Shown here: positions 17,839-64,000 of the stretch, piece after piece
Layout of the letters: every line of letters begins with the position of its first letter
How positions within the stretch are numbered: position 1 is the stretch's first letter
NCBI GenBank assembly: GCA_963770565.1
Contig: CAVYQE010000008.1
Location: forward strand, 128,001-192,000
Direction of reading: 5' to 3'
DNA: 64,000 bases
From: an uncultured Actinomycetota bacterium
Lineage (GTDB): Bacteria > Actinomycetota > Actinomycetes > JAFAQI01
Translations under genes and position numbers: made by a program
The notes under the pieces: model-generated
What the model saw: only the letters and a program-made list of their open reading frames with translations
Databases searched by the model: none
What the model was told of the DNA's origin: nothing

Positions 17839-17895
17839 CGCCAGTCACAAGGCGGTTCCGCGGAAACGTGTTCTCGATGCGCGGCGTGACTCGGT

Positions 17896-44070: not shown

Positions 44071-44071
44071 C

Positions 44072-45673
44072 GTGCTCTTGACCATCACCTCCCCGCCTCG
44101 CCTGGCCACCCTGTGGTGTCCCGACTGGCCGGTGACCACGGTCCGGATGACCTCCGGGGTGCCGGGTGACGCGCCGGTCGCGGTGGTCACGGCTAACCAG
44201 GTCATCGCCTGCTCGGCGGTGGCGAGGGGAGCCGGCGTACGACGGGGGATGCGCCGCCGGGAGGCACAGTCGCGCTGCCCCGAGCTAGTGGTGCTGGCTC
44301 GCGACGAGCCGGCCGAGGCCAGGTGCTTCGAGCCGGTGATCGTCGCGGTGGAGTCGCTGGTGCCGGGGGTCGAGGTGATGCGGCCGGGGTTGGTCGCGGT
44401 CGGGGTTCGCGGACCGATGCGGCACTACGCCGGCGAGCCGGCGTTCGTCGACGCGCTGTGGGGGGCCGTGAGCTGGCTGACCGAGGACGCCGCTCAGATC
44501 GGGGTGGCCGACGGGGCGTTCGCGGCCGAGCAGGCGGCGCGGCGCGGCATGATCGTGCCGGCCGGTGAGTCGGCGGAGTTCCTCGCCGATTTTCCGGTGA
44601 CCACGTTGAGTGCGTTCGGCAACGCAGACCTGGTCGATCTGTTGCAACGGCTGGGGATTCACACCCTCGGCGGGTTTGCCGCCCTGCCTGCCCGCGACGT
44701 GCTGATGCGGTTCGGCCCGGTCGGCGCCTGGGCGCACCGGCAGGCCGGCGGCCGTGACGACCGGCCGATCGTGATGCGCGAACCGCCGGCCGAATGCACC
44801 GTCACGGTCGAGCTCGATACACCGGTCGATCGGGTCGATGTGGTGGCGTTCAGCGCGCGAAGCGCGGCCGAGCGGTTCATCGCCGATCTGGCCGCCCGCG
44901 GGCTGTCGTGCGCCTGTTTCGAGCTCGAGGCCTTCACCGAGGCGGGCGAGACGATGGCGCGGCGCTGGCGTCATCCCGGCGTACTGACCGCTCCCGACGT
45001 CGTCGATCGGATCCGCTGGCAGCTCGAGGGCTGGCTGCACGGCGCGAACGGCGCGAACGGTGCGCCAGGGGGCGGGCAGCGCCCGACCGCGGGAATCACC
45101 CGGCTGCGCTTCGTCCCGGTCGAGACGGTGCCGAGCGGCACCCATCAACAGGCGTTGTGGGGCGGGCCGGGCGAGGCCGGCGAGCGCGCGCACCGGGCCC
45201 TGGCCAGGGTGCAGACGATGCTCGGCCTTGGCTCGGTGGTGGTGCCGGTGGTCGAGGGTGGTCGCGGCCCGATCGATCGCACCCAGCTCGTCCCGTGGGG
45301 CGAGGATCGGGCCGCCACTCGCGCGCCGGACCAGCCGTGGCCGGGTCGGCTGCCCTCGCCGGCCCCCTCGGTGCTGATCGACCCGCCCGCCGCGGTGGCG
45401 GTGCTCGACGAGATCGGTCACCCGGTGGTCGTCACCGAACGCGGCGGGGTGGTCCGCCCACCCGCCCGGCTCGGGTTGGGCAACGATCCGCCGGTCGCCG
45501 TGACGTCGTGGGCCGGTCCGTGGCCGGTCGACGAGCGCTGGTGGGATCCCGGGCAGAGCACCCGGGTAGCCCGGCTCCAGCTCGTCGACGATCACGGCCG
45601 GGCCTACCTCGTGGCCGGCGAGATGCGCCGTACCGATGCCCCCCGGTGGTCCCTCGAAGGGATCTACGACTGA
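44072..45673 (+). CDS. imuB: ImuB, Y-family polymerase-like scaffold
   Basis: LWCPDWP, GVRRGMRRREAQSRCP, RIRWQLEGWL, GPWPVDERWWD and C-terminal EGIYD. Confidence 0.92.
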   Translation: MLLTITSPPRLATLWCPDWPVTTVRMTSGVPGDAPVAVVTANQVIACSAVARGAGVRRGMRRREAQSRCPELVVLARDEPAEARCFEPVIVAVESLVPGVEVMRPGLVAVGVRGPMRHYAGEPAFVDALWGAVSWLTEDAAQIGVADGAFAAEQAARRGMIVPAGESAEFLADFPVTTLSAFGNADLVDLLQRLGIHTLGGFAALPARDVLMRFGPVGAWAHRQAGGRDDRPIVMREPPAECTVTVELDTPVDRVDVVAFSARSAAERFIADLAARGLSCACFELEAFTEAGETMARRWRHPGVLTAPDVVDRIRWQLEGWLHGANGANGAPGGGQRPTAGITRLRFVPVETVPSGTHQQALWGGPGEAGERAHRALARVQTMLGLGSVVVPVVEGGRGPIDRTQLVPWGEDRAATRAPDQPWPGRLPSPAPSVLIDPPAAVAVLDEIGHPVVVTERGGVVRPPARLGLGNDPPVAVTSWAGPWPVDERWWDPGQSTRVARLQLVDDHGRAYLVAGEMRRTDAPRWSLEGIYD

Positions 45674-45681
45674 TGCCCGTA

Positions 45682-45766
45682 CCAAGCAATGTCACATTGC
45701 CCCCCACTTCGTGGGGGCAATGTGACAGCACCCCCGAATTTCCCTGGGCAATGTCACATTGCTTGG
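45682..45766. repeat. 85-bp nested palindromic element between imuB and dnaE2
   Basis: Terminal IR CCAAGCAATGTCACATTGCCC / GGGCAATGTCACATTGCTTGG, with three copies of GCAATGT(C/G)ACA. Confidence 0.85.
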
Positions 45767-45779
45767 CGGGGGTTGGCTG

Positions 45780-48700: not shown

Positions 48701-49331
48701 TGATGCGACCGGGCCGTTCACCTCGATGGCCGACCTGGCACACCGGGTCGGCCTGTCGAGTGATCAGGTCGAGGCGCTCGCGACCGCCGGTGCCTTCGAC
48801 GGTTTCGGGGTCGCCCGCCGCGAGGCGCTGTGGACCGCGGGCGCAGCGGCCGCGGTGCGACCGGGCCAGTTCGACCTGGTCGCGGTCGACGAGACCGCGA
48901 CACCACAACTGCCGGAGATGACCGAGCCGGAGCAGATGATCGCCGATCTGTGGGCGACCGGTGTCACGGCCGATCACTATCCGACCGCATTGGTCCGCGA
49001 CCGGCTCGACTCGCTCGGTGTCATCACCGCCGCGGGGCTGCGACAGGTCGCCGACCACACCCGGGTGACGGTCGGGGGGATCGTCACGCACCGGCAGCGA
49101 CCGGCGACCGCCCGCGGGGTCACCTTCATCAACCTCGAGGACGAGACCGGGATGGTCAATGTCATCTGCTCGCTGCAGGTGTGGGGGAGATACCGGGTGA
49201 CCGCGCGAAGCTCGGCGGCGCTGCTGATCCGCGGCATGCTGCAGCACTCCGAGGGCGTGGTCAACGTCATGGCCGAGCGGATCGAGCGGCTGCCGCTCGG
49301 GGTGCGCCCGAGCGCCCGCAACTTCCGCTAG
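45780..49331 (+). CDS. dnaE2: Error-prone DNA polymerase DnaE2
   Basis: MGWENPP..W.ELER N-terminus, PHP motif YAELHAHS.FS, GRGSAA.S, PPDIDVD, HLGIHSGG and a C-terminal SARNFR motif. Confidence 0.96.
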   Translation: MGWENPPIPWRELERRLSGRPAPAGPNAAPPAGPDVKPPAGPNAAPPAGPDVTPPAGSNAAPPAGPDATPPAGPNSVAGGRSAGEVGGDGGDSVAWSRHRPAYEPVPLVRPDRTVPYAELHAHSSFSHLDGASLPEEMVEEGVRLGLSGLALTDHNGMYGVVRFAEAAQRFDLPTIYGAELSLDLSVPTTSAQRSVGARSGMTDPTGRHLLVLARDPAGYASLCRAISAAQRRGGAKGHPVYDLDELTDLAAGQWLVLTGCRKGAVRAALETADFGSFALDPARAALAELVTRFGRDNVAVELSYARDPLADERYDALALLADEQHLPVVATTAAHYHGPARRPLATAMAAVRARRSLPELDGWLPAWADQQLRTGEEMAQRFARWPGAVPAAARLGAELAFSIHLIAPDLPPFPVPPGHTEMTYLRELSMRGAAKRYGPRGPDTEKAYAQIEHELVVIEELKFPGYFLVVWDIVRFARESGILCQGRGSAACSAVCYALEITAVDAVRYELLFERFLAAERGEPPDIDVDIESGRREEVIQYVYTLHGRDHAAQVANVITYRPRSALRDVAKALGYSTGQQDAWSKQIEHGFTTSVIAQSEDNPVPPKVLELAEELRNTPRHLGIHSGGMVICDRPIVEVCPVEWGRMPGRTVLQWDKDDCAAIGLVKFDLLGLGMLSALRYSFELIADWYGVTYDLDSIPKEAPCVYDMVCEADTVGVFQIESRAQMATLPRLRPRCFYDLVIEVALIRPGPIQGDSVHPYIRRRHGREPVTYPHPALADALGRTLGIPLFQEQLMQVAVAAANFTPSEADQLRRAMGSKRSDARIEALRQRLYDGMAGNGITGAPADEIFDKIRAFAAFGFAESHAISFALLVYASSWLKLHYPAAFCAALINAQPMGFYSPQSLVADARRHGVETRQPDINVSLAGAGLEPGEGRSQCACLDAPQPAVRLGLSSVRTIGDDLADRIVADRDATGPFTSMADLAHRVGLSSDQVEALATAGAFDGFGVARREALWTAGAAAAVRPGQFDLVAVDETATPQLPEMTEPEQMIADLWATGVTADHYPTALVRDRLDSLGVITAAGLRQVADHTRVTVGGIVTHRQRPATARGVTFINLEDETGMVNVICSLQVWGRYRVTARSSAALLIRGMLQHSEGVVNVMAERIERLPLGVRPSARNFR
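45843..46010 (+). repeat. In-frame 24-bp tandem repeat (7 copies) in the dnaE2 5' region
   Basis: Encodes alternating (P/A)PAG(P/S)NAA and PPAGPD(V/A)(K/T) units. Confidence 0.92.
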
Positions 49332-51692: not shown

Positions 51693-51825
51693 TAACTGCG
51701 GCTTCGTACCTTCTGTCCTACCCCATCGGGCGATCAACGCACGTCCGTGCGGCTCCGATTGACCACCTATGCGGATCCGGCGCCAGCCGCCGCGCTCGTG
51801 TGGTCAACCAGAAGGACCCGTACAC

Positions 51826-53238
51826 ATGCACGTCAGCTCCCTGGTGGGACGGATCGCGGTGAGCGCGGGTCTGCTGGGTGCCGTTTTGACGGGGCCGCTC
51901 GGGCTGACCCACAGCGCGGCGGCCGGGTCGGGCCGGCATCTGGTCTACTGCTACGGCACAGTGGCCAGGGTCGACGACGGCGACACGGTCGACGTGCACC
52001 TGACCAGCGCCTGCCCCGGTGGCCTGAAGGGCCACCTGATCGTCGTGCGCAACGCGGGGATCCAGGCGACCGAGATCGCGCACGGTAGCGCCAAGGCGGA
52101 GTGCTGGAGCGCCGAGGGCCACGGCCTGTTCCGCTCGCTCATGCACCACGGCCAGCAGGTGCGGTTGTCGTCGTACTTCGCGACGCCGGCGCCCGACAGC
52201 GGTTCGAGGGGCATCGCGCGTTGGCGGAAGTACGTCGATGCCTGGATCGGCGGCCGATGGGTGGACGTGCAGGCGGCTGAGCTTCTGGCCGGCGACGCGA
52301 TGTGGAAACAGGAGCCCGTCGAGACGGCGCACCTCGCCGAGTACATGCGGGACGAGCAAGAGGCGATGGACGGCCAGGTCGGCATGTGGGGGAGCACCGA
52401 CCACTGCTCGGACGGCTACGACCAGAGCGCGCAATTCGAGTCGTGGATCGTGTGGAAGACCGACGGTCCGGACAGCGGCGCGACGGCGTACGAAGAGTCC
52501 TTCGATGTGAAGAACGTCGGGACGACGAGCGTGGATCTGTCCGGGTGGAAGATCCGGGACGGTTCGCATCACTTTGCGGGTGGGACCGATCGCGACGTGA
52601 GTGCTCAACGCACCTACTTGGTCCTGCCGCAGGGCACCGTGCTCCCACCCGGCCGGACGCTCGTCGTCCATCCGTCCCATGGCAGGAGCAAGCCGTCGAA
52701 GTTCGTCTTCTACAACAACGGGCATGTGTGGACCGGTCGCGGGCGGAACTACTTCCCGAACGCGCCGATGGGTCATGGCGGGCTCGGGGCCCATCCCGAT
52801 CAGGCCTACCCGGATGGCTCGCAGCTGTTCCTCCTCGACCCGGCACTCGATTTCCGCGCGTGGGCGACGTACCCGTGTGTGTATCGATGTGCGGTGCCGG
52901 CTCCACTCACGATCTGGGCGCAGCCGGGCGTTCGCGACCACAACCGGGAGTACGTGACGATCCATAACCCGACCAGCGACCTGGTCGACTTGACCGGCGA
53001 TGTGGTGGACATGGATGGGCGGACGCTGAACCTGTCCGGCGACCTTGCAGCCGATGCGACCATGAGAATCCATTGCAGGGGCAACGGTCGCACCACTGCC
53101 CTCAACCGGTACTGGGACGATCTGTCCCACCAGCTGCCGAATGCCGGCGGCACGATCTGGCTGCGCACCGCGACTGACGTGACGATCAGCACGTTCTCGT
53201 GGGGCAACCGCGGCAACTACAACTATTACAAGGGTTGA
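51826..53238 (+). CDS. Secreted thermonuclease (SNase-like) protein with two lamin-tail domains
   Basis: Signal peptide, VARVDDGDTVDV and R.AGI.A.E SNase motifs, LTD motifs E.F.VKN.G...VDLSGWKIRD and EYVTIHNPTSDLVDLTG. Confidence 0.8.
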   Translation: MHVSSLVGRIAVSAGLLGAVLTGPLGLTHSAAAGSGRHLVYCYGTVARVDDGDTVDVHLTSACPGGLKGHLIVVRNAGIQATEIAHGSAKAECWSAEGHGLFRSLMHHGQQVRLSSYFATPAPDSGSRGIARWRKYVDAWIGGRWVDVQAAELLAGDAMWKQEPVETAHLAEYMRDEQEAMDGQVGMWGSTDHCSDGYDQSAQFESWIVWKTDGPDSGATAYEESFDVKNVGTTSVDLSGWKIRDGSHHFAGGTDRDVSAQRTYLVLPQGTVLPPGRTLVVHPSHGRSKPSKFVFYNNGHVWTGRGRNYFPNAPMGHGGLGAHPDQAYPDGSQLFLLDPALDFRAWATYPCVYRCAVPAPLTIWAQPGVRDHNREYVTIHNPTSDLVDLTGDVVDMDGRTLNLSGDLAADATMRIHCRGNGRTTALNRYWDDLSHQLPNAGGTIWLRTATDVTISTFSWGNRGNYNYYKG

Positions 53239-53293
53239 GCGCCCGGGTTCCAGCCCAGGTTGACCGGTCGGTGGGCTGGGTAGCCTGACCTTT

Positions 53294-55357
53294 GTGGATC
53301 ATCAGCGTGGCGGTCGGGTTGCCGTCAGCGTGGTCGTTCCGGTCCACAATCCCGGCAAGTTCATCGAGACGTGTATCGACTCCTTGCTCGGGCAGAGCCT
53401 GGCCCGCGATCAGTTCGAAGTGATCTTCGTCGATGACGGTTCGACCGACGAGACTCCGGCCCGGTTGGATGAGGTGGCGGCGAGAGAGTCGAACGTCACC
53501 GTCATCCACGAGCCCGCATCTGGCTGGCCCGGCCGGCCACGCAACATCGGCATCGACCGCGCCGTCGGTGACTACGTCTTCTTCTGCGACCACGATGACT
53601 GGCTCGGCCCCGAGGCGCTGGAGCGGATGGTCGCGTACGCCGACACCTGTGGCGCCGACATCCTGATCGGCAAGACGATCGGCCATCGACGCGGTGTGCC
53701 GCGCGACCTGTTCCGTGCCAATGAGCCCGACGCGACGCTGTGGACCAAGCCGCTGATGACGAGCTTGTCACCGCACAAGTTGTTCCGGCGCGCGTTCCTC
53801 GACGAACACGCGCTGCGGTTCCCGGAGGGCAAGCGCCGACTGGAAGACCACGTGTTGGTCGTTCAGGCCTACTTCCTCGCCAATCGGATCGCGGTGTTGA
53901 GCGACTACGTCTGCTATCACCACATCCGCCGCGACGACGATCTCAACGCGGCCTACACGCCGATCGATCCGCCGAGCTACTTCGGATATGTGCGCGAGGT
54001 GCTCGACATCATCGAGGCGCACACCGAGCCCGGGCCGCTGCGTGACCACGTCCTGGAGCGCCCGTTCCGGCAGGAGCTGCTCGGCCGGATCGCCCGGCCG
54101 CGACCGGTCGGCACGGCACCCGAGGGCTACGACGAGGCGGTGTTCAACGAGGTTCGCGCAGTGATGCTTGAGCGCTTCCCGCCCGACTTCGCCGACCGGC
54201 TGCCACTGATCGCGCGTGTCCGCGCGGCAATCGTGCGCGACGACCGGTACTCCGTGCTCGCCGACCTGAGTGCGCGGATCGCTGACCTTCAAGGTCGCGT
54301 CGTCATGACCTCGTTGCGCTGGGAGCGCGGTGGTTGGCAAGCCGGGATCGAGGTGGAGGCCGAGTTCGCCGACGGCACGCCGTTGCGCTTCATTCGTCGC
54401 GATGACGACCGGTGGTCGGTCGATCCGCGACTGCTGCCTGCCGATCTGCGAGCTGCACATGATGTCGGCACTTCGGAACTGCTCGGGATCAGGCCGTCGG
54501 TGGTCGTGGTCGAGCGGTCGAGCGACGAGGAGTGGTTCGTACCCGCGCAACTCGTGGCTGATTCGCGCGCCATCCCTGACGATCCCGATGGCGCGCATCG
54601 GGTCGTGGTGACCGGCGCCGCGGAGTTCGATCCGAGCACGCTGGCCGGCGGCCGGGCGCTGGCGAACGGCATCTGGGATGTGACGGTGCGGTTCTCCTGC
54701 ATCGGGGTGGACCTGAGGGGCCGGATCGGCATCGAGCCGACGACTCGCCCGGCGCTGCCGAGCGCGGCGGTCATCGGGCCGCGACCGGTGACGGTCATTC
54801 CGTATCTCACCGAGACCAACGAGAACTTCAGCCTGGATGTCGGCCAGCGCGTCCACACCCTGCTGGCCGCGTTGCTGGCCCGCCCGATCGGGCCGGTCAG
54901 CGTCAGGCGCGAGTACTTCTCGGCTCGGGTCGATGTCGACATCGCGCCCGGTGCCTCGTCGCGGTCGCTGCGGCTGCAACTGCTGGGCGGCGACACCGTG
55001 GTCGGCCACTGCGAGGCCGCGATCGTGGCGGACGGCGAGACTGCCGCGCTTCGCGGTGGCACGGTGCCCAAACCGGCCGGCGGGGTCTTGCGGCGGCTGC
55101 ACGGCCCGGGGCAGTACACGTTGGGTGCGCAGTCACGGGCTAAGGACGAGCCGTCACTCGTCGGGACGGTCGATGTCAACCGCTTCGGCAGAATCGTCGC
55201 GGCCGACTTCAGCCCTGAGCGCCGCGACTCGGTGGTGCCGCTGCCGGAGGGGTTCGGCGAGGTAACGCCGGTCGACCGTGCCGTCGAACGCGCGCGGCAC
55301 GTCGCCGGCCGGGCGGTGCGCGGCGCGCGCCGGCCTGGCCCCCGTCAGCCCAGGTAA
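53294..55357 (+). CDS. GT2 glycosyltransferase (TarS-like) with long C-terminal extension
   Basis: VSVVVPVHN, FVDDGSTD, SGWPGRPRNIG, FCDHDD and RRLEDH motifs; leaderless start (TAGCCT + 7 nt + GTG). Confidence 0.88.
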   Translation: MDHQRGGRVAVSVVVPVHNPGKFIETCIDSLLGQSLARDQFEVIFVDDGSTDETPARLDEVAARESNVTVIHEPASGWPGRPRNIGIDRAVGDYVFFCDHDDWLGPEALERMVAYADTCGADILIGKTIGHRRGVPRDLFRANEPDATLWTKPLMTSLSPHKLFRRAFLDEHALRFPEGKRRLEDHVLVVQAYFLANRIAVLSDYVCYHHIRRDDDLNAAYTPIDPPSYFGYVREVLDIIEAHTEPGPLRDHVLERPFRQELLGRIARPRPVGTAPEGYDEAVFNEVRAVMLERFPPDFADRLPLIARVRAAIVRDDRYSVLADLSARIADLQGRVVMTSLRWERGGWQAGIEVEAEFADGTPLRFIRRDDDRWSVDPRLLPADLRAAHDVGTSELLGIRPSVVVVERSSDEEWFVPAQLVADSRAIPDDPDGAHRVVVTGAAEFDPSTLAGGRALANGIWDVTVRFSCIGVDLRGRIGIEPTTRPALPSAAVIGPRPVTVIPYLTETNENFSLDVGQRVHTLLAALLARPIGPVSVRREYFSARVDVDIAPGASSRSLRLQLLGGDTVVGHCEAAIVADGETAALRGGTVPKPAGGVLRRLHGPGQYTLGAQSRAKDEPSLVGTVDVNRFGRIVAADFSPERRDSVVPLPEGFGEVTPVDRAVERARHVAGRAVRGARRPGPRQPR

Positions 55358-56151
55358 CCCCAGTTGCGACAGGCCGGGCGCAGTTCCTCCGGGATCTCCT
55401 GGTCGGCGGGCAGGACGAGCTCGCTGTCGATTCGGCCCGATCGGATCTTCGCGCTCCAGTCGCCGATCCGGGGCTTAAACGGGCCGTGGTCGACCGATCC
55501 GTAGTCGATCATCGCCCGCTCCCACGGCACCCCTAGATGGGCGCAGATCTCGGTCGTGATCCGCGCCGGCTCTTTGACCAGGTCTTCGTAGTGGATCGTG
55601 ATGCCCGGCAGCGCGTTGCGCGCCTCGTCGATCTTCTGCGTGTATTCGACCACCCGCGCACGGACGTCGGCGAGCACCGGGTCCTTGCGGGCCCGATACA
55701 GCGAGTCCGCGATCGCGGCCGGGTGCCGCAGCAGGAACACGTAGCGCGCCTTGGGCCACGCTTCCTGCAGCCGCTCCCAGGCGAAGACGGCGTTCGGCGT
55801 CTTGTCGACGATGATCGACTTCCCGCTGGCAACCAGTTCGCGGTGGAGCACTCGGTCCCACAACAGGTATTCGAGGCGTCGTTCGTCGAGCCCGATCTGG
55901 CGCATCGACTCCGCTCCGTACCGCTGGTCGATCCGCACCCGCAGCGTGCGCAGATGCAGCTCGTGCGGCGCACAGATCATCGAGTGGCTGTTGAGGATGA
56001 CGCGCAGCAGGGTCGAGCCCGATCGCACCGAGGTCAGGATGAATGTGGGCTGCTCGACCAGCCGATCGACCCGCTTGTGCGGACCAGTCGAGCGCAGTGA
56101 TCCGACCCGCGTGAGCCGGTATCCGGTGGCTCGGGCGATCGCCTGGTTCAC
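55345..56151 (-). CDS. Sulfotransferase family protein
   Basis: PTFIL..VRSGSTLLR..LNSH (5'-PSB loop), DKTP, LLRHP...S and YEDLV.EP motifs. Confidence 0.88.
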   Translation of the reverse strand: MNQAIARATGYRLTRVGSLRSTGPHKRVDRLVEQPTFILTSVRSGSTLLRVILNSHSMICAPHELHLRTLRVRIDQRYGAESMRQIGLDERRLEYLLWDRVLHRELVASGKSIIVDKTPNAVFAWERLQEAWPKARYVFLLRHPAAIADSLYRARKDPVLADVRARVVEYTQKIDEARNALPGITIHYEDLVKEPARITTEICAHLGVPWERAMIDYGSVDHGPFKPRIGDWSAKIRSGRIDSELVLPADQEIPEELRPACRNWGYLG

Positions 56152-56338
56152 CAGCTGCTTCGCGGGTTGGCCTGGCCGGTCCTTGGCGATGACCCGGTAC
56201 CTCTCGTTCGTCTGACGCGAGCCGGTGGTTGATCGGCGCCATCGTATCGAGCCGAACGGAGACCTTTGCTCGACAACGACCCATGCCTATGTAATACGTT
56301 GGCACGTCACACGGTCGGGGTCGGAGGTAGGAGGCGTC

Positions 56339-57034
56339 GTGCGCGTTGGTCGACGGGTTCCACTGGTGTTGGCGAGCGCGATCGCACTCGCACTCGCCCT
56401 GGTGGGGGGTGTCGCCGTCGCCGTGACGTCGCATTCGCCCGGTGCGAAGGCCTGCGTGACGTCGAGCGGCGTACTGCGGCTGCGGGTCGGCGGGAAGTGC
56501 GCGAGCGGTCAGACCGCCGTCGCGCTCGGTGCCCAAGGCCCACAAGGGGTGGCTGGCGCGCGAGGTGCACGCGGTGCGGTCGGCCCGCGAGGTCCCAAGG
56601 GCAACACCGGCCCGGCCGGGACCGCGCAACGGGTGAACTTCAGCCAGGTCACGCCGGAGGCCAGCAGCGTCTCGCACGCGCTCGCCACCGCCGGTCCCGT
56701 GACGCTGCTGGCGTCGTGCCAGGGCACCGCGCTCTCCACGACGTCGCTGGTGCTGTCGGTCAACGGCGGCACCGACCCGCTCAGCTTCACCGCTAACGGG
56801 GTGTCCAGGGACAACGGCGCCGGCCCGGTTGTCGCGGTCGACCACGGCACGACGGTGTCGCTGCAGACCACTGCGCTGCCGACGATCACCACCCCGGACT
56901 CGCTGTCGGACGTGATCACGATCGTGATCGGAGCTACTAGCGGCGCCGAAGTCACCGGCACGCTCGATGTTGAGCTGAGCACCGCGGCCGACACGCCGGT
57001 CTGCACCGTCGACGGAACGCTGGCGGCAGCGTGA
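56339..57034 (+). CDS. Exported protein with a collagen-like (Gly-X-Y) segment
   Basis: GGAGG RBS, signal/anchor helix, AC...G.LRL....C module, then GAQGPQGVAGARGARGAVGPRGPKGNTGPAG and a beta-rich C-terminal domain. Confidence 0.8.
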   Translation: MRVGRRVPLVLASAIALALALVGGVAVAVTSHSPGAKACVTSSGVLRLRVGGKCASGQTAVALGAQGPQGVAGARGARGAVGPRGPKGNTGPAGTAQRVNFSQVTPEASSVSHALATAGPVTLLASCQGTALSTTSLVLSVNGGTDPLSFTANGVSRDNGAGPVVAVDHGTTVSLQTTALPTITTPDSLSDVITIVIGATSGAEVTGTLDVELSTAADTPVCTVDGTLAAA

Positions 57035-58773
57035 GCTCCGGCCCGAGCAGCTCCGGCGGAAGCACTGCAATGGCAAAGGGAAGAAGGGTCTCGGCAATGA
57101 TCTTTCGCCCCACCCAATCGATTCGTCGACGCACGTCGCTCACCTCGCGGCGGGTGGCTCTTGCCTCGGTCGCGGCGCTGGCTTCGGTGACTCTGACACC
57201 GGCCGCGTCGCACGCCGACACGTCCACCACGGTCACGGTGGTCGGGACCAGCGACGTCTTCGACTCCGACCTGATCCAGCAGGTGATCAAGCCGGGCTTC
57301 GAGGCCGCCTATCCCCAGTACACCTTGAACTACGTCAGCCAGGGCACCGGCGCCGCAATCGCCTACGCCGAGGCCGGCACGGCGAGTGCGCTGCTGGTGC
57401 ATGCCGCGTCGTTGGAGAACCAGCTCGTCGCCTCCGGCCCGCCGTCGTTCTCGTACGAGCAATACGGGCGGGCGATCTTCTACGGCGACTACGTTCTGCT
57501 CGGACCGGCTGACGACCCGGCGGGCGTCATGACGGGGGGAGCGGCCTCGAACAACATCGTCGACGCGTTCCAGAAGATCGCCGCAGCGGGCCAGGGCGGC
57601 ACGGTCAACTTCGTCTCCCGCGGCGGCACGCCCGGCACGACGGTCGAGGAGCACGGGATCTGGGCGCTGACCACCGGCGTCACCACCTGTCCGGTCAGCA
57701 CGCCGAACGGTGGCGGTTCAGTTCCGAACGCGGACACCAACTGCGGGACGCCGACGTTGCCGTCGTGGTACCACACCACCGGGCTGACCCAAGGCCCTAA
57801 CGTCGTTGCCGCGGACACCTGCAACTTCACCGGTGGCAACTGCTACGCGCTCACCGACCGGGGGACCTTCCAGTTCCTCGAGCAGGAGGGCGCGCTGACC
57901 AACCTGCAGGTCGTCGCCAAGAACAACGCGGCTTCGGCGCCGGGCGGCGCCAACCTGTTGATCAACTCCTTCCACGCCTACGCGATCAACCCGGCCGCGT
58001 TCACCTCCAACCCGAATGTGCACATCAACCTGCAGGGCGCGCTCGCGTTCCTCGACTGGCTCACCTCGCCGGCCGGTCAGAACGCGGTGAACTCCTACCA
58101 GGCAAACGATCCGGGCGGACCGTCGTTCCATGAGGACGCCAGGCCGCAGATCGCGGTGAGCTCGACCCTGCCGGCCACGGTGAAGTCCGGCCACAAGCTG
58201 ACGATCACCGGCTCGCTGACCAACGTGGTGCCGGGTACGCCGCCGCTCGCCGGTGTGCAGATGACCCTGTCCGCAAAGCCCAACGGCGGCACGTCGGGCA
58301 GTGTGGCCACGACCACGACGGATTCGAACGGCAACTTCACCCTGCATTACACGCCGACCGCCAACGCGTCATACCGGGTGTCGAGTCCGGCGATCAGCCA
58401 GATCGAGAACTCGAGCCTCACACCGATCTACGGCGACTTGTTGCAGCCGACGTCAGTCGCGATCGGCAAGTCCACGGTGACCGGGGCGCCCACCATCAGC
58501 AGTGTCAAGGCGCACGCGGGCGCGGTAACCATCAAGGGCACGCTGTCGCCGACCGTCACCGGATCGGGCGCGAAGCTTGTGGTGTACGCCGGGCACGCAC
58601 GCGCCGCCAGCCTGCATGTCGTGTCGACGGTCGCACTTCGTAACGGCGCGAAGACGTTCACCGTCAAGGTGAAACTGCGTCGCGGCATCACCTGGAAAGT
58701 TAAGGTGAAATACGTGAACACCGGCACGATCACCGCGGGCACGTCCGCGGCGTCGTCGGTGCACGTGACCTGA
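57031..58773 (+). CDS. TupA-like (tungstate-type) substrate-binding protein with C-terminal Ig-like extension
   Basis: GTG.A...A..G.A..LLVHA, FVSRG..GT..E and Y.LTDRGTF TupA motifs, plus about 200 aa of beta-rich C-terminal sequence. Start could be 57031, 57070 or 57097. Confidence 0.8.
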   Translation: MSSGPSSSGGSTAMAKGRRVSAMIFRPTQSIRRRTSLTSRRVALASVAALASVTLTPAASHADTSTTVTVVGTSDVFDSDLIQQVIKPGFEAAYPQYTLNYVSQGTGAAIAYAEAGTASALLVHAASLENQLVASGPPSFSYEQYGRAIFYGDYVLLGPADDPAGVMTGGAASNNIVDAFQKIAAAGQGGTVNFVSRGGTPGTTVEEHGIWALTTGVTTCPVSTPNGGGSVPNADTNCGTPTLPSWYHTTGLTQGPNVVAADTCNFTGGNCYALTDRGTFQFLEQEGALTNLQVVAKNNAASAPGGANLLINSFHAYAINPAAFTSNPNVHINLQGALAFLDWLTSPAGQNAVNSYQANDPGGPSFHEDARPQIAVSSTLPATVKSGHKLTITGSLTNVVPGTPPLAGVQMTLSAKPNGGTSGSVATTTTDSNGNFTLHYTPTANASYRVSSPAISQIENSSLTPIYGDLLQPTSVAIGKSTVTGAPTISSVKAHAGAVTIKGTLSPTVTGSGAKLVVYAGHARAASLHVVSTVALRNGAKTFTVKVKLRRGITWKVKVKYVNTGTITAGTSAASSVHVT

Positions 58774-58775
58774 GC

Positions 58776-60065
58776 ATGCGGTTCGCGCCGCCAAGCCGAG
58801 CGCTGATTGCCGCGCTCGCGCTCGGTGGCGCGCTTGCCGTTTCGGCCGTGCCTGCGGCCGCCGCGACCTCATGCCCGACCGGCGACCCGTGCATCGCCGT
58901 GCATCTGCAGTCCGGCACGCAGTACGTCACGGCTTCGCAGATCACCGCGGAGGCAACGGCTGCGGCCGATGCAGGCGCGGCGAACGCGGTGCAGAACGTT
59001 CAGTACCTGTTCAGCGCCGGTGCAGGCGCCGGGCCGTTCGTCGCACTCGGGCTTTCGGTCAACGCCCTCTTGCAGAACCTGCTCGGTCCGACCGCGTTCG
59101 GTCAAGTGACGTTCACCGAGCTCACCCGACCGATCGACGGCAGCGAGTCGATCCTCCAAGCAAGCACCGGCGACCTGTCGGCGCCGTCGGCCTTCCTCGG
59201 CGGTCAGCTCCCGGTGTTCTGGGTCAACGGCTCCGAGATCGACTACACCCGGCCGCTGCGCGACGGCTCGGACAACGCGGCGACCGATGACGCGATCCAG
59301 AGCGATCAGGGCGGCGCGCTCGACCTGTACGTCCACACCGGGCCGTTGCTCACCGTCACCGCACATGCGAGCGCAACGACGATCAAGGCCGACCAGGCCG
59401 TGACGTTTACTGCCAGCAGCTCCGGCGACTCGATCACGCCGGCCTATCGCTGGACCCTGTTCGGCAGCCCGCACCGGTTCGCCACCGGCCAGCGGGTGAC
59501 CCACACCTTCGCAACCTCGGGGGAGTACGAAGTGCTGCTCAGCGCGGCCGGACCGGACGACTCGGCCGGCGCCGCCAGCCCGCTGTTCATCACCGTGGGC
59601 AGCGCCACCTCGTCACCGTCGAAGTCGCCGAGCCCGGGCTCGAGCGGCCCGCGGTCGCCGAGCACCAGCCCGGACCCGACCGCGAGCTCGCACCCGACGG
59701 CCACGCCCAGCGGCCAGGGGTCCGGTTCGCCGCCTCCGGGTGGGAGCGCGACCGACGGCAGTGGTCCGACCCCGAGCGCGGCGGCGAGCGGCTCGGTACG
59801 GCCGACCCCACCGGCCAACCCCGGTCAACTCCCGGTCGTCAGCGGGCGGCTGATCGGCGAGGGGGTGGCCCTGCTGACCACTCCCGGTGCATCGTCGGCG
59901 CAGGTTCAGGGTGGCGCGATCCCGGCAGCGCGAATGTCGACCGGCTGGCGCGTGACGACCGCGACCGGCTCGGTGCTGGCGATAATGCTGTTGTTCGGGT
60001 TGGGTGCCGCCCGCGAGCTGCGCTGGTCGAGAACGGGGTCGAAGACGTGGGTGCGACGGCATTGA
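58776..60065 (+). CDS. Cell-surface PKD-domain protein with Pro/Ser linker and C-terminal TM anchor
   Basis: Signal peptide, VTFTAS...YRW....ATG..VTHTFATSGEYEV.L PKD motif, S/P/G-rich spacer, then a TM helix and basic tail. Confidence 0.8.
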   Translation: MRFAPPSRALIAALALGGALAVSAVPAAAATSCPTGDPCIAVHLQSGTQYVTASQITAEATAAADAGAANAVQNVQYLFSAGAGAGPFVALGLSVNALLQNLLGPTAFGQVTFTELTRPIDGSESILQASTGDLSAPSAFLGGQLPVFWVNGSEIDYTRPLRDGSDNAATDDAIQSDQGGALDLYVHTGPLLTVTAHASATTIKADQAVTFTASSSGDSITPAYRWTLFGSPHRFATGQRVTHTFATSGEYEVLLSAAGPDDSAGAASPLFITVGSATSSPSKSPSPGSSGPRSPSTSPDPTASSHPTATPSGQGSGSPPPGGSATDGSGPTPSAAASGSVRPTPPANPGQLPVVSGRLIGEGVALLTTPGASSAQVQGGAIPAARMSTGWRVTTATGSVLAIMLLFGLGAARELRWSRTGSKTWVRRH

Positions 60066-60072
60066 GGACACC

Positions 60073-60717
60073 GTGACCCACGGCATCGAGCAGGCAATCT
60101 TCGACGTTGCCCGATCACTCGAGGTCCCAGTGCTCATCCTCGCTCTGCTCGCCCTCGCCGCGGTGATCGTCGAGATCGGCGCGTTCGCGGTCGAGTTGAG
60201 GAATCGGCAGCAGCGTCGGTTCGCGGCGGTCGCCGCCGCAGCGGCTGACGCCCGCAAGGCGATTGCCGACGGCGACCGTGGCGCGGCGACCGCGACGCTC
60301 AGCGAGGTGGCCTGGAGCGCGGCGATGGCAGAGACGCTGAAGACCATCGCCGAGCAAGCCGGCGAGTCGGGAGCGGATACCCGGCTGGCCAAGGCGCTCG
60401 CCGACTTCGACTTCGACTCCCAGCGCCGTCTCGCGCGCACCAGGCTTCTGGTCCGGGCCGGTCCGGCGCTCGGCCTGATGGGCACTTTGATCCCGTTGTC
60501 GCCTGCGCTCGAAGGGCTGCGCAACGGCAACACGACAGTGCTCAGTCAGAACCTCCGAGTTGCCTTCAGCGTGACCGTCCTCGGCCTGCTTGTTGGCGCG
60601 ATCGCCTTCGGGATCTCGCTCTACCGCGACCGGATGTACGGCCAGGACCTCTCCGACCTCGAGTACGTCGCCGCCGTACTCACCGATGACCGGCCGGCGC
60701 CGGGGGTGCCAGCATGA
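60073..60717 (+). CDS. MotA/TolQ/ExbB proton-channel family protein
   Basis: R.LVR.GPALGLMGTLIPL.PAL.GL and L.VAFS.TV.GL motifs, three TMs; GAGG RBS before GTG 60073. Confidence 0.88.
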   Translation: MTHGIEQAIFDVARSLEVPVLILALLALAAVIVEIGAFAVELRNRQQRRFAAVAAAAADARKAIADGDRGAATATLSEVAWSAAMAETLKTIAEQAGESGADTRLAKALADFDFDSQRRLARTRLLVRAGPALGLMGTLIPLSPALEGLRNGNTTVLSQNLRVAFSVTVLGLLVGAIAFGISLYRDRMYGQDLSDLEYVAAVLTDDRPAPGVPA

Positions 60718-61037
60718 TCAAGGTCACGCCGCGGGCCCGACTGCGCGAGGACCGGGCCGGGGATCCGCTCGACGGTCTGGTCAACCTCTTCGACCTCGGC
60801 ATCGTCCTGGCGGTCGCGTTCCTGCTTGCCGCGCTCGCCTCGCTCAACCTCACGAAGGCGTTCACCAAGAACGGCCTTCATCCGGTGGCGCCAGGCACGA
60901 TCACGATTGCTCCCGGCCAGACCGTGCACACGTTGCCTTCGCCCGGTGCCCGGACGATCGGTCCCGGGGTGAAGGTGGGCACGGTCTACCGGCTGCCGTC
61001 GGGCAAGCTCGTCTACGTGACCGGCCCGTCCAAGTAA
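60714..61037 (+). CDS. DUF2149 domain protein (ExbD/MotB-like partner)
   Basis: DPLDGLVNLFDLGIVLAVAFL single TM with a membrane Asp, C-terminal G.KVGTVYRL.SGKLVYV; ATGA overlap. Confidence 0.85.
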   Translation: MIKVTPRARLREDRAGDPLDGLVNLFDLGIVLAVAFLLAALASLNLTKAFTKNGLHPVAPGTITIAPGQTVHTLPSPGARTIGPGVKVGTVYRLPSGKLVYVTGPSK

Positions 61038-61058
61038 CGGCTCGCCCGGAGCGATGCG

Positions 61059-61778
61059 GTGAAGTTCATCTGGCGAGGGCTGCGGCAGGCGTGGCACCTC
61101 ATCGTCACCGGCGATCCCAGTCTCCGCCATCTCACCTGGATCACCCTCGACGTCGCGGTCGTGGCGACTGTGGTCGCGGTGGTCATCGGGTTGCCGCTCG
61201 GTCTGGCGCTCGGGCTCGGCCGGTTCCGGGGCCGGCAGGCCGGCATCATCCTGGCCAATGCCGGCCTTGGCCTGCCGCCGGTGATGGTCGGATTGGTGTT
61301 GGCGCTGTTGATGTTTCCGGCCGCGCCACTCGGGCGGTTCCATCTGCTGTTCACTCTGCACGGGGTCTACATCGCGCAGTCGCTGCTGTCGTTCCCGATC
61401 ATCGTGGCGCTCAGCTGCTCGGCGGTGCGCGCCTTGCCACCCGGCCTGATCGAGCAGGCCAGGGCGTTCGACGCCGGCCGGCTGCAGATCTGGGCGCTCG
61501 CGGCCCGCGAGGCGCGGGTCGGGATCCTGACCGCGGTGATCGCGGCGGTGGGGTCGGCGCTCTCCGAGGTCGGCGCCGTCGTGCTGGTCGGCGGCAACAT
61601 CTATGGCAACGACCAGACGCTCGCCAGCGCGACGATCTTCGCCGTCGACCAGGCCCAGTTTGGCTACGCGATGGCGATCGGCATCATCCTGCTCGGGCTG
61701 ATCCTCGTGGTGGCGGCCGTGCTGACCTTGATCCAACAGGGTTCGGCGCACCGGGTCCGGATCCGGCCACCGTCATGA
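61059..61778 (+). CDS. ABC transporter permease, TupB-like
   Basis: GLPLG..L...RF.GR, N..LGLPPV.VGL, AQ..L..PII and SEVGAV.LVGGNI...QTL motifs. Confidence 0.88.
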   Translation: MKFIWRGLRQAWHLIVTGDPSLRHLTWITLDVAVVATVVAVVIGLPLGLALGLGRFRGRQAGIILANAGLGLPPVMVGLVLALLMFPAAPLGRFHLLFTLHGVYIAQSLLSFPIIVALSCSAVRALPPGLIEQARAFDAGRLQIWALAAREARVGILTAVIAAVGSALSEVGAVVLVGGNIYGNDQTLASATIFAVDQAQFGYAMAIGIILLGLILVVAAVLTLIQQGSAHRVRIRPPS

Positions 61779-62734
61779 GCGCGCCGATCGCCGCACCGCG
61801 GCCGCTGCTCCGCGCGACCTCGCTCGGCGTCCGCCGTGGTGGTGCCGACGTCCTGCACGGGGTCAGCCTCGACGTCGGGCCGGGCGAGGTGCTGGCGGTG
61901 CTCGGACCGAACGGCGCCGGTAAGAGCACCCTGCTGGCCGCCCTGGGCGGTGGGCTGAAGCCGTCGACCGGCACGGTCGAACGGGCCGGCCGGGTGGCAA
62001 CCGCGATGCAGTCACCCGACCTCGCCCGCCGCAGCGCGCGGGCCAACGTCGAGGTGGCACTCGCCTGGTGGGGCGTGTCGAGACGCGAGCGCCGGGATCG
62101 CGCCGCTGAGGCGCTCGCGGCCATGCAAGCCGACCATCTGGCCGACCGGCAGACCACCGCCATGTCCGGTGGTGAACGAAGGCGGGTCCACATCGCGCGT
62201 GCGCTCGCGTTGCGGCCCGACGTCTTGCTGCTCGACGAGCCGTTCGCCGGGCTCGACCCGGTCAGCCGGGGCGCACTGCTCGACGACACCGCGTCCGCGC
62301 TCCGGGGCGGCTCCGGCGCGGTGGTGCTCGTCGTCCACGACCGGGCCGAGGCGTGGGCACTTGCGAACCGGCTGGTCGTACTCATCGATGGCCGGATCGC
62401 CGCGGAGGGCCCGCCGCGCGAGGTGCTCGAGGCACCGCCGAGTGCCGGCGTCGCGCGGTTCCTGGGCTTCACTGGCGAGTTCCGTGACGGGACCGAGCTG
62501 GTGTTCACCCGGCCCAGCCAGGTGCACCTCGACCCGCAGGGCGAGATCGCGGCCACCGTCGTACGGCTGATCCCGTTCGAGGACGGTGCGCGCGCCGAGC
62601 TGGAGACACCGACCGGGCACCTGTCGGCGATCGTGCCGTATCCGGGGCCGAGCGTCGGCGACGCGGTCCGGGTCCGCGTCGACGCGTGCGTGCGGTTTCC
62701 GGTCGATCACCAATATGGTGAGGCCCGTGGCTGA
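61775..62734 (+). CDS. ABC transporter ATP-binding protein, TupC-like
   Basis: GPNGAGKST, MSGGE, LLLDEPF and H-loop motifs, C-terminal TOBE-like region; ATG 61775. Confidence 0.9.
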   Translation: MSAPIAAPRPLLRATSLGVRRGGADVLHGVSLDVGPGEVLAVLGPNGAGKSTLLAALGGGLKPSTGTVERAGRVATAMQSPDLARRSARANVEVALAWWGVSRRERRDRAAEALAAMQADHLADRQTTAMSGGERRRVHIARALALRPDVLLLDEPFAGLDPVSRGALLDDTASALRGGSGAVVLVVHDRAEAWALANRLVVLIDGRIAAEGPPREVLEAPPSAGVARFLGFTGEFRDGTELVFTRPSQVHLDPQGEIAATVVRLIPFEDGARAELETPTGHLSAIVPYPGPSVGDAVRVRVDACVRFPVDHQYGEARG

Positions 62735-63101
62735 GCTGCTCCGCATCGGCGAGGTGTCGAAGGCGCTCGGCGTCAGCATCGACACCCTGCGCCGATGGGA
62801 GGCCGACGGCCGGGTGAAGTTCGTCCGGCGCGGCAATCAGCGGATGCTGCCGGCCGCCCAGCTCGGCAAGCTCCTGCGGTCTCAGACCGGGTCGACCAAC
62901 AAGTCCAGTGCCCGCAACCGGCTCACCGGGGTGGTGGTCTCGGTCGACCGCGACGGGGTCATGGCCAAGGTCGAGATGGCGTGCGGCGACTTCCGGATCG
63001 TGTCGTTGATGAGCCGGGAGGCGGCCGACGATCTCAAGCTCGAGCCGGGCGTGTTCGCGACCGCGGTGGTCAAGGCGACGAACGTGATCATCGACCGGTG
63101 A
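62727..63101 (+). CDS. MerR/excisionase-type HTH + TOBE (molybdate/tungstate-binding) regulator
   Basis: LRIGEV...LGVSIDTLRRWE HTH; SSARNRL.G.V...DGVMA.VE...SLMSREA...L.L.PG..A.AVVKATNV Mop/TOBE domain. Confidence 0.92.
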   Translation: MAELLRIGEVSKALGVSIDTLRRWEADGRVKFVRRGNQRMLPAAQLGKLLRSQTGSTNKSSARNRLTGVVVSVDRDGVMAKVEMACGDFRIVSLMSREAADDLKLEPGVFATAVVKATNVIIDR

Positions 63102-63133: not shown

Positions 63134-63721
63134 TCAGACCGGCTGGGCGACCGGCTCGGCCGGCTCGAGGGCCGGCGCCGGTGCCGACGGCTCCGCCTCG
63201 GGCGGCGCGGAATGCGTCACCCGCATCACCAGGATGACCGCGCCGAGGAGCAGCACCAGGTCACCGACACTCAGCATGTTGCGCAGCGGCAGCCAGGACG
63301 GCGTGACCATGATGTCGCCGAGCCAGCTCAGGTGCGGGTGGGCCAGCACGCCGGAGTTCTGGAAGCCGACCCGCGGCTTGATGCCGGCCGCACGGAGCGC
63401 GTGGGCCGTGGCGGGCAGCGTGCCGTCGTTGACCGCGATCGCGAGTGCATTTGAGCCGGCTCCGAGCGCGATCACGATCATGCCGGGCACGGTCCGGTTG
63501 ACCCAGACCACGGCGGCCAGCATGGCGTAGGTCGCAAGGTGCAGGCCGACCGCGACCGGGTGCGGCATCGCCGGCCAGATCGTGATCACGAAGACCTGCA
63601 CGGCGAGGGCCGCGATCGCCAGCGGCACCCATCGGAGCTTGATCTCGGCCAGCCGGCGCAGGTTGCCGCCGGTGACGGGGACGAGTACGACGATCAGGAG
63701 CGCGCAGAATCCGAGGAACAT
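63134..63721 (-). CDS. DUF5317-like membrane protein
   Basis: GG.L.RLA, G...N.LAI.VN.G.LP, L.WLGDI and SVGD motifs; adjacent to an EAL gene. Confidence 0.8.
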   Translation of the reverse strand: MFLGFCALLIVVLVPVTGGNLRRLAEIKLRWVPLAIAALAVQVFVITIWPAMPHPVAVGLHLATYAMLAAVVWVNRTVPGMIVIALGAGSNALAIAVNDGTLPATAHALRAAGIKPRVGFQNSGVLAHPHLSWLGDIMVTPSWLPLRNMLSVGDLVLLLGAVILVMRVTHSAPPEAEPSAPAPALEPAEPVAQPV

Positions 63722-63722
63722 G

Positions 63723-64000
63723 TCACAACGCCTGCAGTTTTGCGCGCGCGGCCACGGCCGGCGGCCTGGTCCGCTGGCCCAACCAGGCGTTCAGCGCGTC
63801 GGCGGTAAGCGGCCGAGCCAGTCGGTAGCCCTGAATCGTGTCGCAGTCGATCGAGGTGAGCAGCGCCCACGCCTCGTCCGTCTCGACGCCTTCGGCCGTG
63901 ACCGAAAGCCCGAAGCGGTGGCCCAGGTCCACGATCGCGCGCACGATGATCTCGTCCTTGGGGCTCTCCCCGAGTTCCGCGACGAACGACTTGTCGATCT
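63723..64000 (-). CDS. EAL-domain (c-di-GMP phosphodiesterase) protein, 3' end only
   Basis: IDKSFV, AIVDLGH..GL.VTAEGVET and CD.IQGY.LARP motifs; extends beyond the right edge. Confidence 0.9.
   Translation of the reverse strand, partial: IDKSFVAELGESPKDEIIVRAIVDLGHRFGLSVTAEGVETDEAWALLTSIDCDTIQGYRLARPLTADALNAWLGQRTRPPAVAARAKLQAL

Follow-up and report, generated by a model that had tools for sequence, protein, structure and literature searches.

A Tup-type ABC importer operon with an embedded ExbB-like/DUF2149 motor and a PKD membrane protein is conserved in Actinomycetota

In the genome of an uncultured Actinomycetota bacterium (GTDB lineage Bacteria; Actinomycetota; Actinomycetes; JAFAQI01), eight plus-strand genes, here g1 to g8, join a Tup-type ATP-binding cassette (ABC) importer to an ExbB-like/DUF2149 motor and a PKD-containing membrane protein. 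They lie at 56339-63101 of the 64,000-nucleotide stretch of DNA that was analysed, referred to as the window (assembly GCA_963770565.1, contig CAVYQE010000008.1, positions 128,001 to 192,000 of the forward strand). The module consists of seven core genes, g2 to g8, and a collagen-like accessory in this lineage; the gene set is a conserved unit under purifying selection and not a relic. We propose that the proton motor works through the PKD protein, g3, on an extracytoplasmic step that precedes import by the Tup-type ABC transporter, and that the genes form a self-contained acquisition module of soil Actinomycetota, a reading to which we give about an even chance. The parts are of known kinds; what is new is the way they are combined, and the g3 transducer: as had been claimed in the original prediction made from the letters of the window, no system of this composition, and no ExbB/DUF2149 motor joined to a Tup-type ABC importer, is described in the open full-text literature searched.

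Composition of the operon

The eight open reading frames (ORFs) follow each other with junctions, in order, of -4, +2, +7, -4, +21, -4 and -17 bp, and their G+C content of about 70% is the same as that of the surroundings. They encode a collagen-repeat protein (g1), a TupA-like substrate-binding protein (g2), the PKD membrane protein (g3), an ExbB-like subunit (g4), a DUF2149 protein (g5), a TupB-like permease (g6), an ABC ATPase (g7) and a regulator with a helix-turn-helix (HTH) and a TOBE/Mop domain (g8). Searches with the hidden Markov models (HMMs) of Pfam and NCBIfam at curated cut-offs back each domain call of the original prediction, and its description of eight co-directional genes holds, with overlaps or gaps of at most 21 bp.

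Conservation of the gene set

To place the operon among related genomes, one genome per GTDB species was scanned with an alignment of 20 relatives of g4. This matched 319 loci, of which the best 80 were examined by tblastn with the eight window proteins; gene counts refer to the 69 loci in which the flanking sequence reaches 4 kb or more upstream and 3.5 kb or more downstream. The 80 loci come mostly from metagenome-assembled genomes (MAGs) of Solirubrobacterales, the rest from Frankiaceae and Mycobacteriales MAGs and the cultured Nocardioides mangrovicus (L033). A DUF2149 gene stands beside, and 3' of, the ExbB-like gene in all 69 loci. The TupA-like protein, the ATPase and at least one TupB-like permease are present in 68 of them, a recurrence that puts the arrangement far from chance. 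The permease occurs in two copies in 61 loci, in one copy in 7, as in the window, and not at all in 1; two tandem copies of g6 are typical of most Solirubrobacterales loci. The HMM of the g3 family matches 78 of the 80 loci, the misses being L063 and L010, whose contig breaks off there. The linkage of the ExbB/DUF2149/PKD block to tupABC, on which the original prediction had staked its case, is thus found in two actinobacterial classes.

Gene order varies more than membership: the genes run g8-g4-g5-g6-g6-g7-g2-g3 at two loci (L003 and L028), and in L026 the ABC genes lead, with membership intact in each. The closest locus, from an uncultured Frankiaceae MAG (L001), shares 87-97% protein identity over g3-g8, in line with an actinobacterial origin of the window. 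Between it and the window, the ratio of nonsynonymous to synonymous substitution rates (dN/dS) amounts to 0.15 (g4), 0.06 (g5), 0.32 (C-terminal part of g3) and 0.06-0.17 (ABC genes and regulator). Judged by these low ratios and the recurrence in related loci, the set is a functional unit kept by selection rather than a relic. Conservation of the flanking genes does not extend past close relatives, and the sampled ones bear no relation to molybdenum or tungsten (Mo/W).

The first gene of the operon in the window, g1 (56339-57034), encodes an N-terminally anchored or exported protein in whose translation about ten G-X-Y triplets are visible; its Collagen score of 22.2 bits is below the Pfam cut-off of 27.2. 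A homologue recurs solely in L002, 1 of the 80 loci, so the collagen-repeat protein that the original prediction had counted in the operon is present here but is a lineage-specific accessory outside the conserved unit.

The g3 gene is split over two frames in six MAG assemblies (L003, L014, L036, L054, L059 and L064); these copies are probably assembly errors in the G+C-rich stretch coding for its Pro/Ser/Thr linker and not real pseudogenes. Apparent fusions of g2 and g3 at L005 and L080 were rejected, as the long open frames differ in frame from the g2 match.

The ExbB-like/DUF2149 motor

The proton-channel subunit g4 (60073-60717; true start 60073; 214 residues, identical to P0001) belongs to the MotA/TolQ/ExbB family and passes the gathering score of MotA_ExbB (PF01618) with 33.6 against 22.9 bits. 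Its homologues number at least 3939 at an E-value of 0.001 among 8000 candidates scored, mostly from soil metagenomes, and PF01618 is found in all 120 homologues among the matches listed. An invariant RAGPALGLMGTLIPLSPAL block marks the ExbB-like family. The following gene, g5 (60714-61037), encodes an ExbD/TolR-like single-pass subunit that matches DUF2149 (PF09919, COG4744) with 52.4 bits against a gathering score of 27.1. Residue D27 in its single membrane helix and a DPLDGLVNLFD block are invariant in 61 sequences, and the external domain comprises about 60 residues. An Asp within the helix of the small subunit is the pattern of ExbD, TolR and MotB, and by this analogy D27 of DUF2149 may carry the protons.

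No close relative of either subunit was found among solved structures: the PDB search with g4 gave marginal MotA/PomA matches only, and matches of DUF2149 to designed repeat proteins were rejected as spurious. A collection of plasmids held no close g4 relative, the 9 distant matches all covering less than 80%. Prediction of a complex of two DUF2149 external domains with the juxtamembrane segment of g3 returned a score of 0.02 and a mark of 0.32, which weighs neither way.

The same motor subtype occurs in other settings, and the background that the original prediction had given (Bacteroidota hmu operons, and a place beside CobN-like chelatases) is borne out by the literature and by plasmid loci. 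Aligned by hhalign to the pair of the Trichlorobacter lovleyi plasmid pGLOV01, the ExbB-like and DUF2149 proteins prove homologous to it over nearly the full length, with probabilities of 98.8 and 96.5, respectively. On pGLOV01 (L081, 3769-13270) a TonB-dependent receptor, DUF2162, ExbB-like, DUF2149 and CobN are followed by a canonical exbB-exbD-tonB set; on the Azospirillum plasmid p4 (L082) the order is CobN, ExbB-like, DUF2149. As pGLOV01 carries the separate canonical set, the ExbB-like/DUF2149 motor need not serve TonB, which argues that the CobN-linked and canonical motor types have different clients. In published accounts, the pair corresponds to HmuU/HmuV in the hmu operons of P. gingivalis, P. 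intermedia and B. thetaiotaomicron, and is described in P. aeruginosa PA1922-1925; in methanogens, DUF2149 (COG4744) is linked to TolQ. A 2026 account still calls the function of HmuU/HmuV uncharacterised.

At L080, a second DUF2149 gene (17636-17974; PF09919, E 2.4e-14) is found 7 kb downstream of the module proper. It is a lone copy, with no ExbB-like gene detected alongside, and adjoins a gene for a PepSY_TM protein and, on the opposite strand, a WbqC-like gene.

The PKD membrane protein and its N-terminal domain

Directly 5' of the motor genes, g3 (58776-60065) encodes a type-I membrane protein that is the candidate force transducer. Its PKD domain scores 32.1 bits against a gathering score of 23.5, and in the family of 59 members PKD_4 is matched by 57 and PKD by 55. 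The AlphaFold model shows a signal peptide, a confident alpha/beta domain (residues 39-187), the PKD domain (193-275) and a helix at 394-420. The roughly 110 residues between the latter two (about 280-393) are disordered in the model, rich in Pro, Ser and Thr, and include a conserved juxtamembrane segment. The C-terminal transmembrane helix reads ...LLFGLGAARELRW in the window, with the motif G-x-G-A-x-R-E-L; across the 59 aligned sequences G410 never varies, and A411, E414 and L415 hardly do. This helix matches the motor in its degree of conservation. In 76 of the 80 loci an ORF ends just 5' of the ExbB-like gene, and of these 76 ORFs 69 have a C-terminal transmembrane helix and 67 the pattern G-[AGIV]-x-x-E, several of the exceptions being frameshifted MAG copies. 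Judged from the model, the layout of membrane helix, long spacer and distal head would suit a force transducer like TonB or TolA, anchored at the opposite end.

The N-terminal domain constitutes a new, narrow sequence family. None of the 59 members has a Pfam match in this region at E-values up to 10, including PF00174 (Oxidored_molyb), and its profile finds only a chance-level match of 22 residues in the PDB. Among 1.84 billion clustered proteins it has 342 representatives, nearly all of 400-530 residues with the domain N-terminal. Folded alone, the domain is predicted with a pLDDT of 89 and a pTM of 0.87 and has ten beta-strands. The best Foldseek match is the PruR structure 7KP2 (probability 1.00, TM-scores 0.54/0.62), and four of the top five are PruR entries (7KP2, 7KOM, 7KOS and 7KOU), with 7RKB lower; E. 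coli YedY (TM-score 0.52) and SorT are further matches. The full-length model matches SorT and sulfite oxidases with probabilities of 0.95-0.99 at a TM-score of about 0.2. Language-model features of the ESM Atlas place Oxidored_molyb (PF00174) clusters among the nearest named ones, with scores of 0.79-0.80, which are leads only. Taken from these models, the N-terminal domain likely has a sulfite-oxidase (SUOX)/PruR-type fold. PruR, as described in the literature, has a degenerate sulfite-oxidase fold, lacks the Mo-ligand Cys and binds excreted pterins, which it contacts through N102, Y104 and W160 (stacking Tyr/Trp and an Asn). The original prediction had raised a pterin-bound form of the metal as a possible substrate; the head fold closest to PruR is an unexpected lead in that direction, and g3 may bind a pterin. 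The g3 N-terminal domain also contains an invariant Tyr-x-Arg-Pro segment.

Two subfamilies differ at the N-terminus, and no Cys is conserved across both. In 42 of the 59 proteins, essentially those of Solirubrobacterales (loci L004-L078), a conserved twin-arginine-like region (RRPGxxPGRRFAL) suggests that g3 may be exported by the twin-arginine route in a folded, perhaps cofactor-loaded, state. The window protein, whose corresponding end is encoded at 58776-58870, and its closest relatives, those of L002, L009 and L033, are without this region; their mature N-terminus bears a C-x5-C pair instead. No similarity was found between g3 and DUF2162, encoded 5' of the ExbB-like gene on pGLOV01.

The TupA-like binding protein

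Preceding g3, g2 (57031-58773; alternative start 57070) encodes a binding protein that passes PBP_like_2 with 58.7 bits and has TupA as its sole NCBIfam match. Weak CarboxypepD_reg and Big_1 beta-sandwich matches occupy its C-terminal 220 residues; in the family of 57 members, PBP_like_2 is matched by 46, CarboxypepD_reg by 18 and Big_1 by 7. The only PDB sequence matches are 3LR1, 3MUQ, 5MY5 and 3KN3, which the D. alaskensis TupA paper (PMC5517513) groups as TupA proteins with a TTTS motif whose Ser faces the oxyanion site.

In a family alignment of 61 rows, with the residue register taken from alignments to 3LR1 and 3MUQ, the equivalent of TupA His59 (H124) is present in 60 rows, with 1 gap, and those of Arg118 and Thr124 (R197 and G202-T203) in all 61. 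GTSD takes the place of TTTS in the window protein and in every one of the 59 rows that have residues at those columns. Four Cys are invariant and suggest two disulfides. All members have a signal peptide ending in A-x-A, followed by D-[TS]-S-S-T. A C-terminal hydrophobic anchor or transmembrane helix was found in 0 of 58 proteins, and no credible lipobox was seen; three lipobox-like matches were rejected, as they are positioned within the hydrophobic core. By its sequence, g2 represents a distinct TupA-related subfamily, the GTSD subfamily, that is predicted to be secreted and unanchored with a large beta-sandwich tail. A free secreted binding protein with such a tail is unusual for a single-membrane bacterium; being unanchored, it would have to be retained by some tether or receptor in a monoderm cell.

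Permease, ATPase, regulator and operator

The remaining transporter genes follow the motor. The single permease of the window, g6 (61059-61778), passes NF038017 (ABC_perm1) with 170.5 against 100 bits, and its best named relatives are TupB and ModB. The ATPase g7 (61775-62734) scores 101.3 bits with ABC_tran and has a C-terminal extension of about 85 residues. The last gene, g8 (62718-63101), encodes a regulator with a MerR/excisionase-type HTH and a TOBE/Mop domain, which passes TIGR00638 (Mop; 57.9 against 55 bits) and TOBE (51.1 against 22.3 bits). Against the full-length ModE model NF007957 it reaches 20.7 of 369 bits, and no ModE-type N-terminal DNA-binding domain was found. Its SSARNR is presumably the 'SARN' motif of Mop. 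A g8 homologue lies within reach in 43 of the 69 loci, 6 times downstream on the same strand and 35 times divergently upstream of g2.

Upstream of g1, an imperfect 21-bp palindrome, TGCCTATGTAATACGTTGGCA (56284-56304, plus strand), is a putative operator. It lies 35 bp before the start of g1, holds the sole TGCCTAT of the 64-kb window, and is followed by a GGAGG-type ribosome-binding site (56322-56333). The same 21-mer, with 1 mismatch, is found ahead of the g1 homologue of L002. Over the 80 loci (1.48 Mb) TGCCTAT/ATAGGCA occurs 71 times, 52 of these in the 1 kb immediately 5' of g2; it precedes g2 in 43 of 70 loci, twice in 10. Of the 30 divergent spacers between regulator and g2, 17 hold GCATATGCAwTGCCTATATGC with at most 2 mismatches. 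The element is AT-rich and conspicuous in the G+C-rich DNA. The simplest reading of these sequences is that one operator, together with the Mop-domain regulator, serves the whole set, and TGCCTAT would be bound by g8. A scan for promoter and terminator consensus sequences was uninformative, with no promoter and 2 terminator-like sites where 2.6 were expected.

Proposed mechanism and alternatives

In the proposed mechanism, the ExbB-like protein and DUF2149 would form a stator-like unit of the ExbB/ExbD type in which the invariant Asp of DUF2149 carries protons. The conserved C-terminal helix would hold g3 beside this motor, and its linker would cross the wall and display the PKD domain and the PruR/SUOX-fold-like head, making g3 an analogue of TonB whose topology is inverted and whose host cell lacks an outer membrane. 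By pulling or rotating g3, the flow of protons would power an energy-requiring extracytoplasmic step. This could be the docking, reeling in or forcing open of the free, Ig-extended and probably very tight-binding TupA-like protein; alternatively, the g3 head may capture the ligand itself and hand it over. Import of the oxyanion by permease and ATPase would follow, with the HTH-Mop regulator setting expression through the TGCCTAT operator. An Mo/W theme is suggested by four independent modules: the TupA kinship of g2, the permease, the Mop regulator and the fold of the g3 head. For g2 itself, Mo/W as the ligand would follow from its kinship with TupA together with the TupB/ModB-like permease and the Mop regulator.

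Several observations weigh against this proposal. The contacts of g3 with the motor and with the binding protein, the Mo/W substrate and the direction in which work is done are all inferred. In L003 and L028, g3 does not adjoin the motor genes. At 26 of the 69 loci no g8 homologue was detected within reach. On the 9.4-kb contig of L063 (2371-4396) the ExbB-like and DUF2149 genes are followed directly by the ABC ATPase, and g2, g3 and the permease were undetected. L041 keeps g3-g4-g5 although within 10 kb there is neither a binding protein nor a permease nor a Tup-like ATPase, so the trio can occur without the ABC genes. This retention also points to g3, ExbB-like and DUF2149 as the tighter unit and, like the conserved C-terminal helix and the long disordered linker, speaks for g3 as the partner of the motor.

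It is from such a trio that a reading as unrelated neighbours takes its start, in which g3, ExbB-like and DUF2149 have an envelope role of their own (display, adhesion or wall maintenance) or are a decaying Ton remnant. PKD and collagen-like proteins are typical of surface and adhesion modules, and incomplete actinobacterial Ton systems are deemed likely non-functional in a 2025 survey. Yet the linkage in 68 of 69 loci survives rearrangement, the genes overlap tightly in one operon behind a single operator, the functional Asp is invariant, and g4 and g5 are under purifying selection as strong as that acting on the ABC genes, so that we consider this explanation highly improbable. As an observation on the same locus, L041 (8736-11196 and 4162-6109) encodes a small His-rich protein (HEHHSHTHTHQHSHGDEHGHAHE...) 2.6 kb upstream of the trio.

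Further points against the proposal concern the substrate. With 56.7 bits against a cut-off of 400, g2 fails the NCBIfam TupA model (NF041772), and g6 fails that of TupB (NF041773) with 119.5 against 320 bits; the TupA and TupB of the original prediction are relatives of these proteins but not equivalogs. The metal-facing Ser of TTTS aligns with the invariant Asp75 of g2, and another ligand is possible. With GTSD in place of TTTS and a TupA score below the cut-off, tungstate as the substrate can be inferred only. No Mo/W enzyme or cofactor gene was found in the window or among 15 sampled neighbour ORFs of three loci. The same machine may hence handle another cargo, such as vanadate, phosphate-like or sulfur oxyanions, or a metal complex, a reading that overlaps with the proposed mechanism in all but the substrate and in which the GTSD subfamily would have changed its specificity. 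Beside the points just given, it draws on SBP_bac_11 matches in 18 of 57 g2 members. The positions important in TupA (Arg, Thr and His) are, however, invariant, the Mop domain is over its curated cut-off, the permease is nearest to TupB/ModB, and the solved relatives of g2 are all TupA; a different cargo is on this evidence unlikely.

A third group of points concerns the head of g3. Its likeness to SUOX and PruR is structural only, at a Foldseek E-value of 0.012 and without a sequence match; the profile search found family members only among the matches listed and no bridge to SUOX, and the Atlas scores (0.79-0.82) are of a size often attained by shuffled proteins. These same likenesses are the starting point for a metal-extraction engine, in which the motor and g3, rather than handle the binding protein, strip Mo/W outside the cell from a carrier held in the g3 head (molybdopterin or debris of the molybdenum cofactor, or another pterin or chelate) and the TupA-like protein then catches the oxyanion. 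Such an engine would fit the closeness of the fold to pterin-binding PruR and to the cofactor-binding domains of SUOX proteins, and a tetrapyrrole chelatase or dechelatase adjoins the motor in every other context seen (hmu, PA1922-1925, pGLOV01 and the Azospirillum plasmid). HmuS, according to its published description, takes iron from heme outside the cytoplasm, where ATP is absent. The fold match is marginal, though, and g3 has no conserved Cys or other mapped cofactor-binding residue, the Cys positions varying by subfamily. HmuU/HmuV are moreover assigned, in the literature, to energising a TonB-dependent receptor, or called uncharacterised, and a coupling of motor and chelatase is itself hypothetical. 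We regard extraction as unlikely. Also doubtful, and somewhat bolder, is a joint reading in which ExbB-like/DUF2149 pairs are general proton-driven engines that extract metals from cofactor-like carriers outside the cytoplasm and a wall-spanning, pterin-binding g3 is pulled as the true counterpart of TonB in single-membrane bacteria, freeing Mo/W for ABC import; its sources could be environmental molybdopterin, other chelates or a binding protein of picomolar affinity. We hold this combination to be quite improbable.

Genomic surroundings

No TonB, TonB-dependent receptor, CobN-like chelatase or Mo/W enzyme was found among the 65 other window ORFs scanned, so that the absence of TonB, outer-membrane receptor and chelatase noted in the original prediction held for all of these; a CysG-like tetrapyrrole methylase lies at 15366-16577. 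On the 5' side of the operon, 51769-56151 encodes a Lamin-tail-domain protein, a family 2 glycosyltransferase with a TarS linker and a sulfotransferase on the minus strand, a surface-glycan-type cluster of which no member is kept beside the module in other loci. On the 3' side, minus-strand genes for a DUF5317 membrane protein and an EAL-domain protein (63134-63998) converge on the operon end; their homologues stand in the equivalent place at just 3 of the 80 loci, and the presence of an EAL gene here, set against the known GGDEF-EAL partner of PruR, is probably a coincidence. Farther away, at 43835-49331, an ImuB-like (IMS) gene and a DnaE2-type gene for the alpha subunit of DNA polymerase III form an ordinary actinobacterial mutagenesis cassette.

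Significance and comparison with known systems

ABC importers are thought to require just ATP and a binding protein, and motors of the ExbB/ExbD type to be relevant only where an outer membrane needs energising. The presence of the module in at least 68 of the species-level genomes examined, from 319 that matched, argues that a proton motor has been recruited to ABC uptake in single-membrane bacteria through an unrecognised transducer. If the proposed mechanism is true, the module would be a tractable model for the widespread and structurally unsolved DUF2149 motor subtype, including that of hmu heme systems and of methanogens, would show trace Mo/W scavenging by soil actinobacteria and Thermoleophilia, and would establish a new family of exported domains whose fold is sulfite-oxidase-like. 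Should the joint extraction and TonB-counterpart reading be correct, ABC uptake would here be seen to be mechanically assisted for the first time, and monoderm Actinomycetota would gain their first case of functional 'Ton-like' force transduction.

Compared with the TupABC systems of Eubacterium acidaminophilum, Campylobacter jejuni, D. alaskensis G20 (5MY5) and Geobacter (3LR1), the module shares the fold family of the binding protein, the equivalents of His59, Arg118 and Thr124, a TupB-like permease, an ABC ATPase and Mop-type regulation. It differs in the GTSD in place of TTTS, the two disulfide-type Cys pairs, the insertions, a beta-sandwich extension of 220-330 residues and the missing anchor of g2, and in the g3, ExbB-like and DUF2149 genes embedded in the operon.

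With the Ton and Tol systems it has in common a channel of the MotA/TolQ/ExbB family, a small single-pass subunit with an Asp of the essential type in its helix, and a third, likewise single-pass protein whose long Pro-rich spacer bears a globular head at its far end. In contrast to these, TonB, TolA and a TonB-dependent receptor are absent here and the host is without a classical outer membrane. The small subunit is DUF2149 and not ExbD, and an ABC importer would be served rather than an outer-membrane gate. The third protein, g3, is unrelated in sequence, carries a PKD domain and a SUOX-like head, and is anchored C-terminally (N-out), the reverse of TonB and TolA.

The CobN-linked ExbB-like/DUF2149 systems have the same motor subtype within an operon for metal or cofactor acquisition, and on pGLOV01 a membrane protein (DUF2162) is encoded directly 5' of the ExbB-like gene, as g3 is here. 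No CobN-like protein, TonB-dependent receptor or DUF2162 belongs to the conserved block of the present module, however, and its partner is a Tup-type ABC transporter, with an apparent cargo theme of Mo/W oxyanions instead of tetrapyrrole metals.

PruR (7KOU, 7KP2, 7KOM, 7RKB) resembles the g3 N-terminal domain in being exported, in having no conserved Mo-ligand Cys and in its ten beta-strands. The g3 head differs in that it is without sequence similarity to PruR and is fused to a PKD domain, a linker and an anchor; in the PruR-DcpA pair the partner is a GGDEF-EAL enzyme, while g3 accompanies a motor and an ABC system.

The regulator g8, finally, is like ModE and other Mop proteins in its C-terminal TOBE/Mop domain and in being encoded with an Mo/W-type transporter. 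It is set apart from ModE by a MerR/excisionase-type HTH, a single Mop domain and the half-site TGCCTAT.

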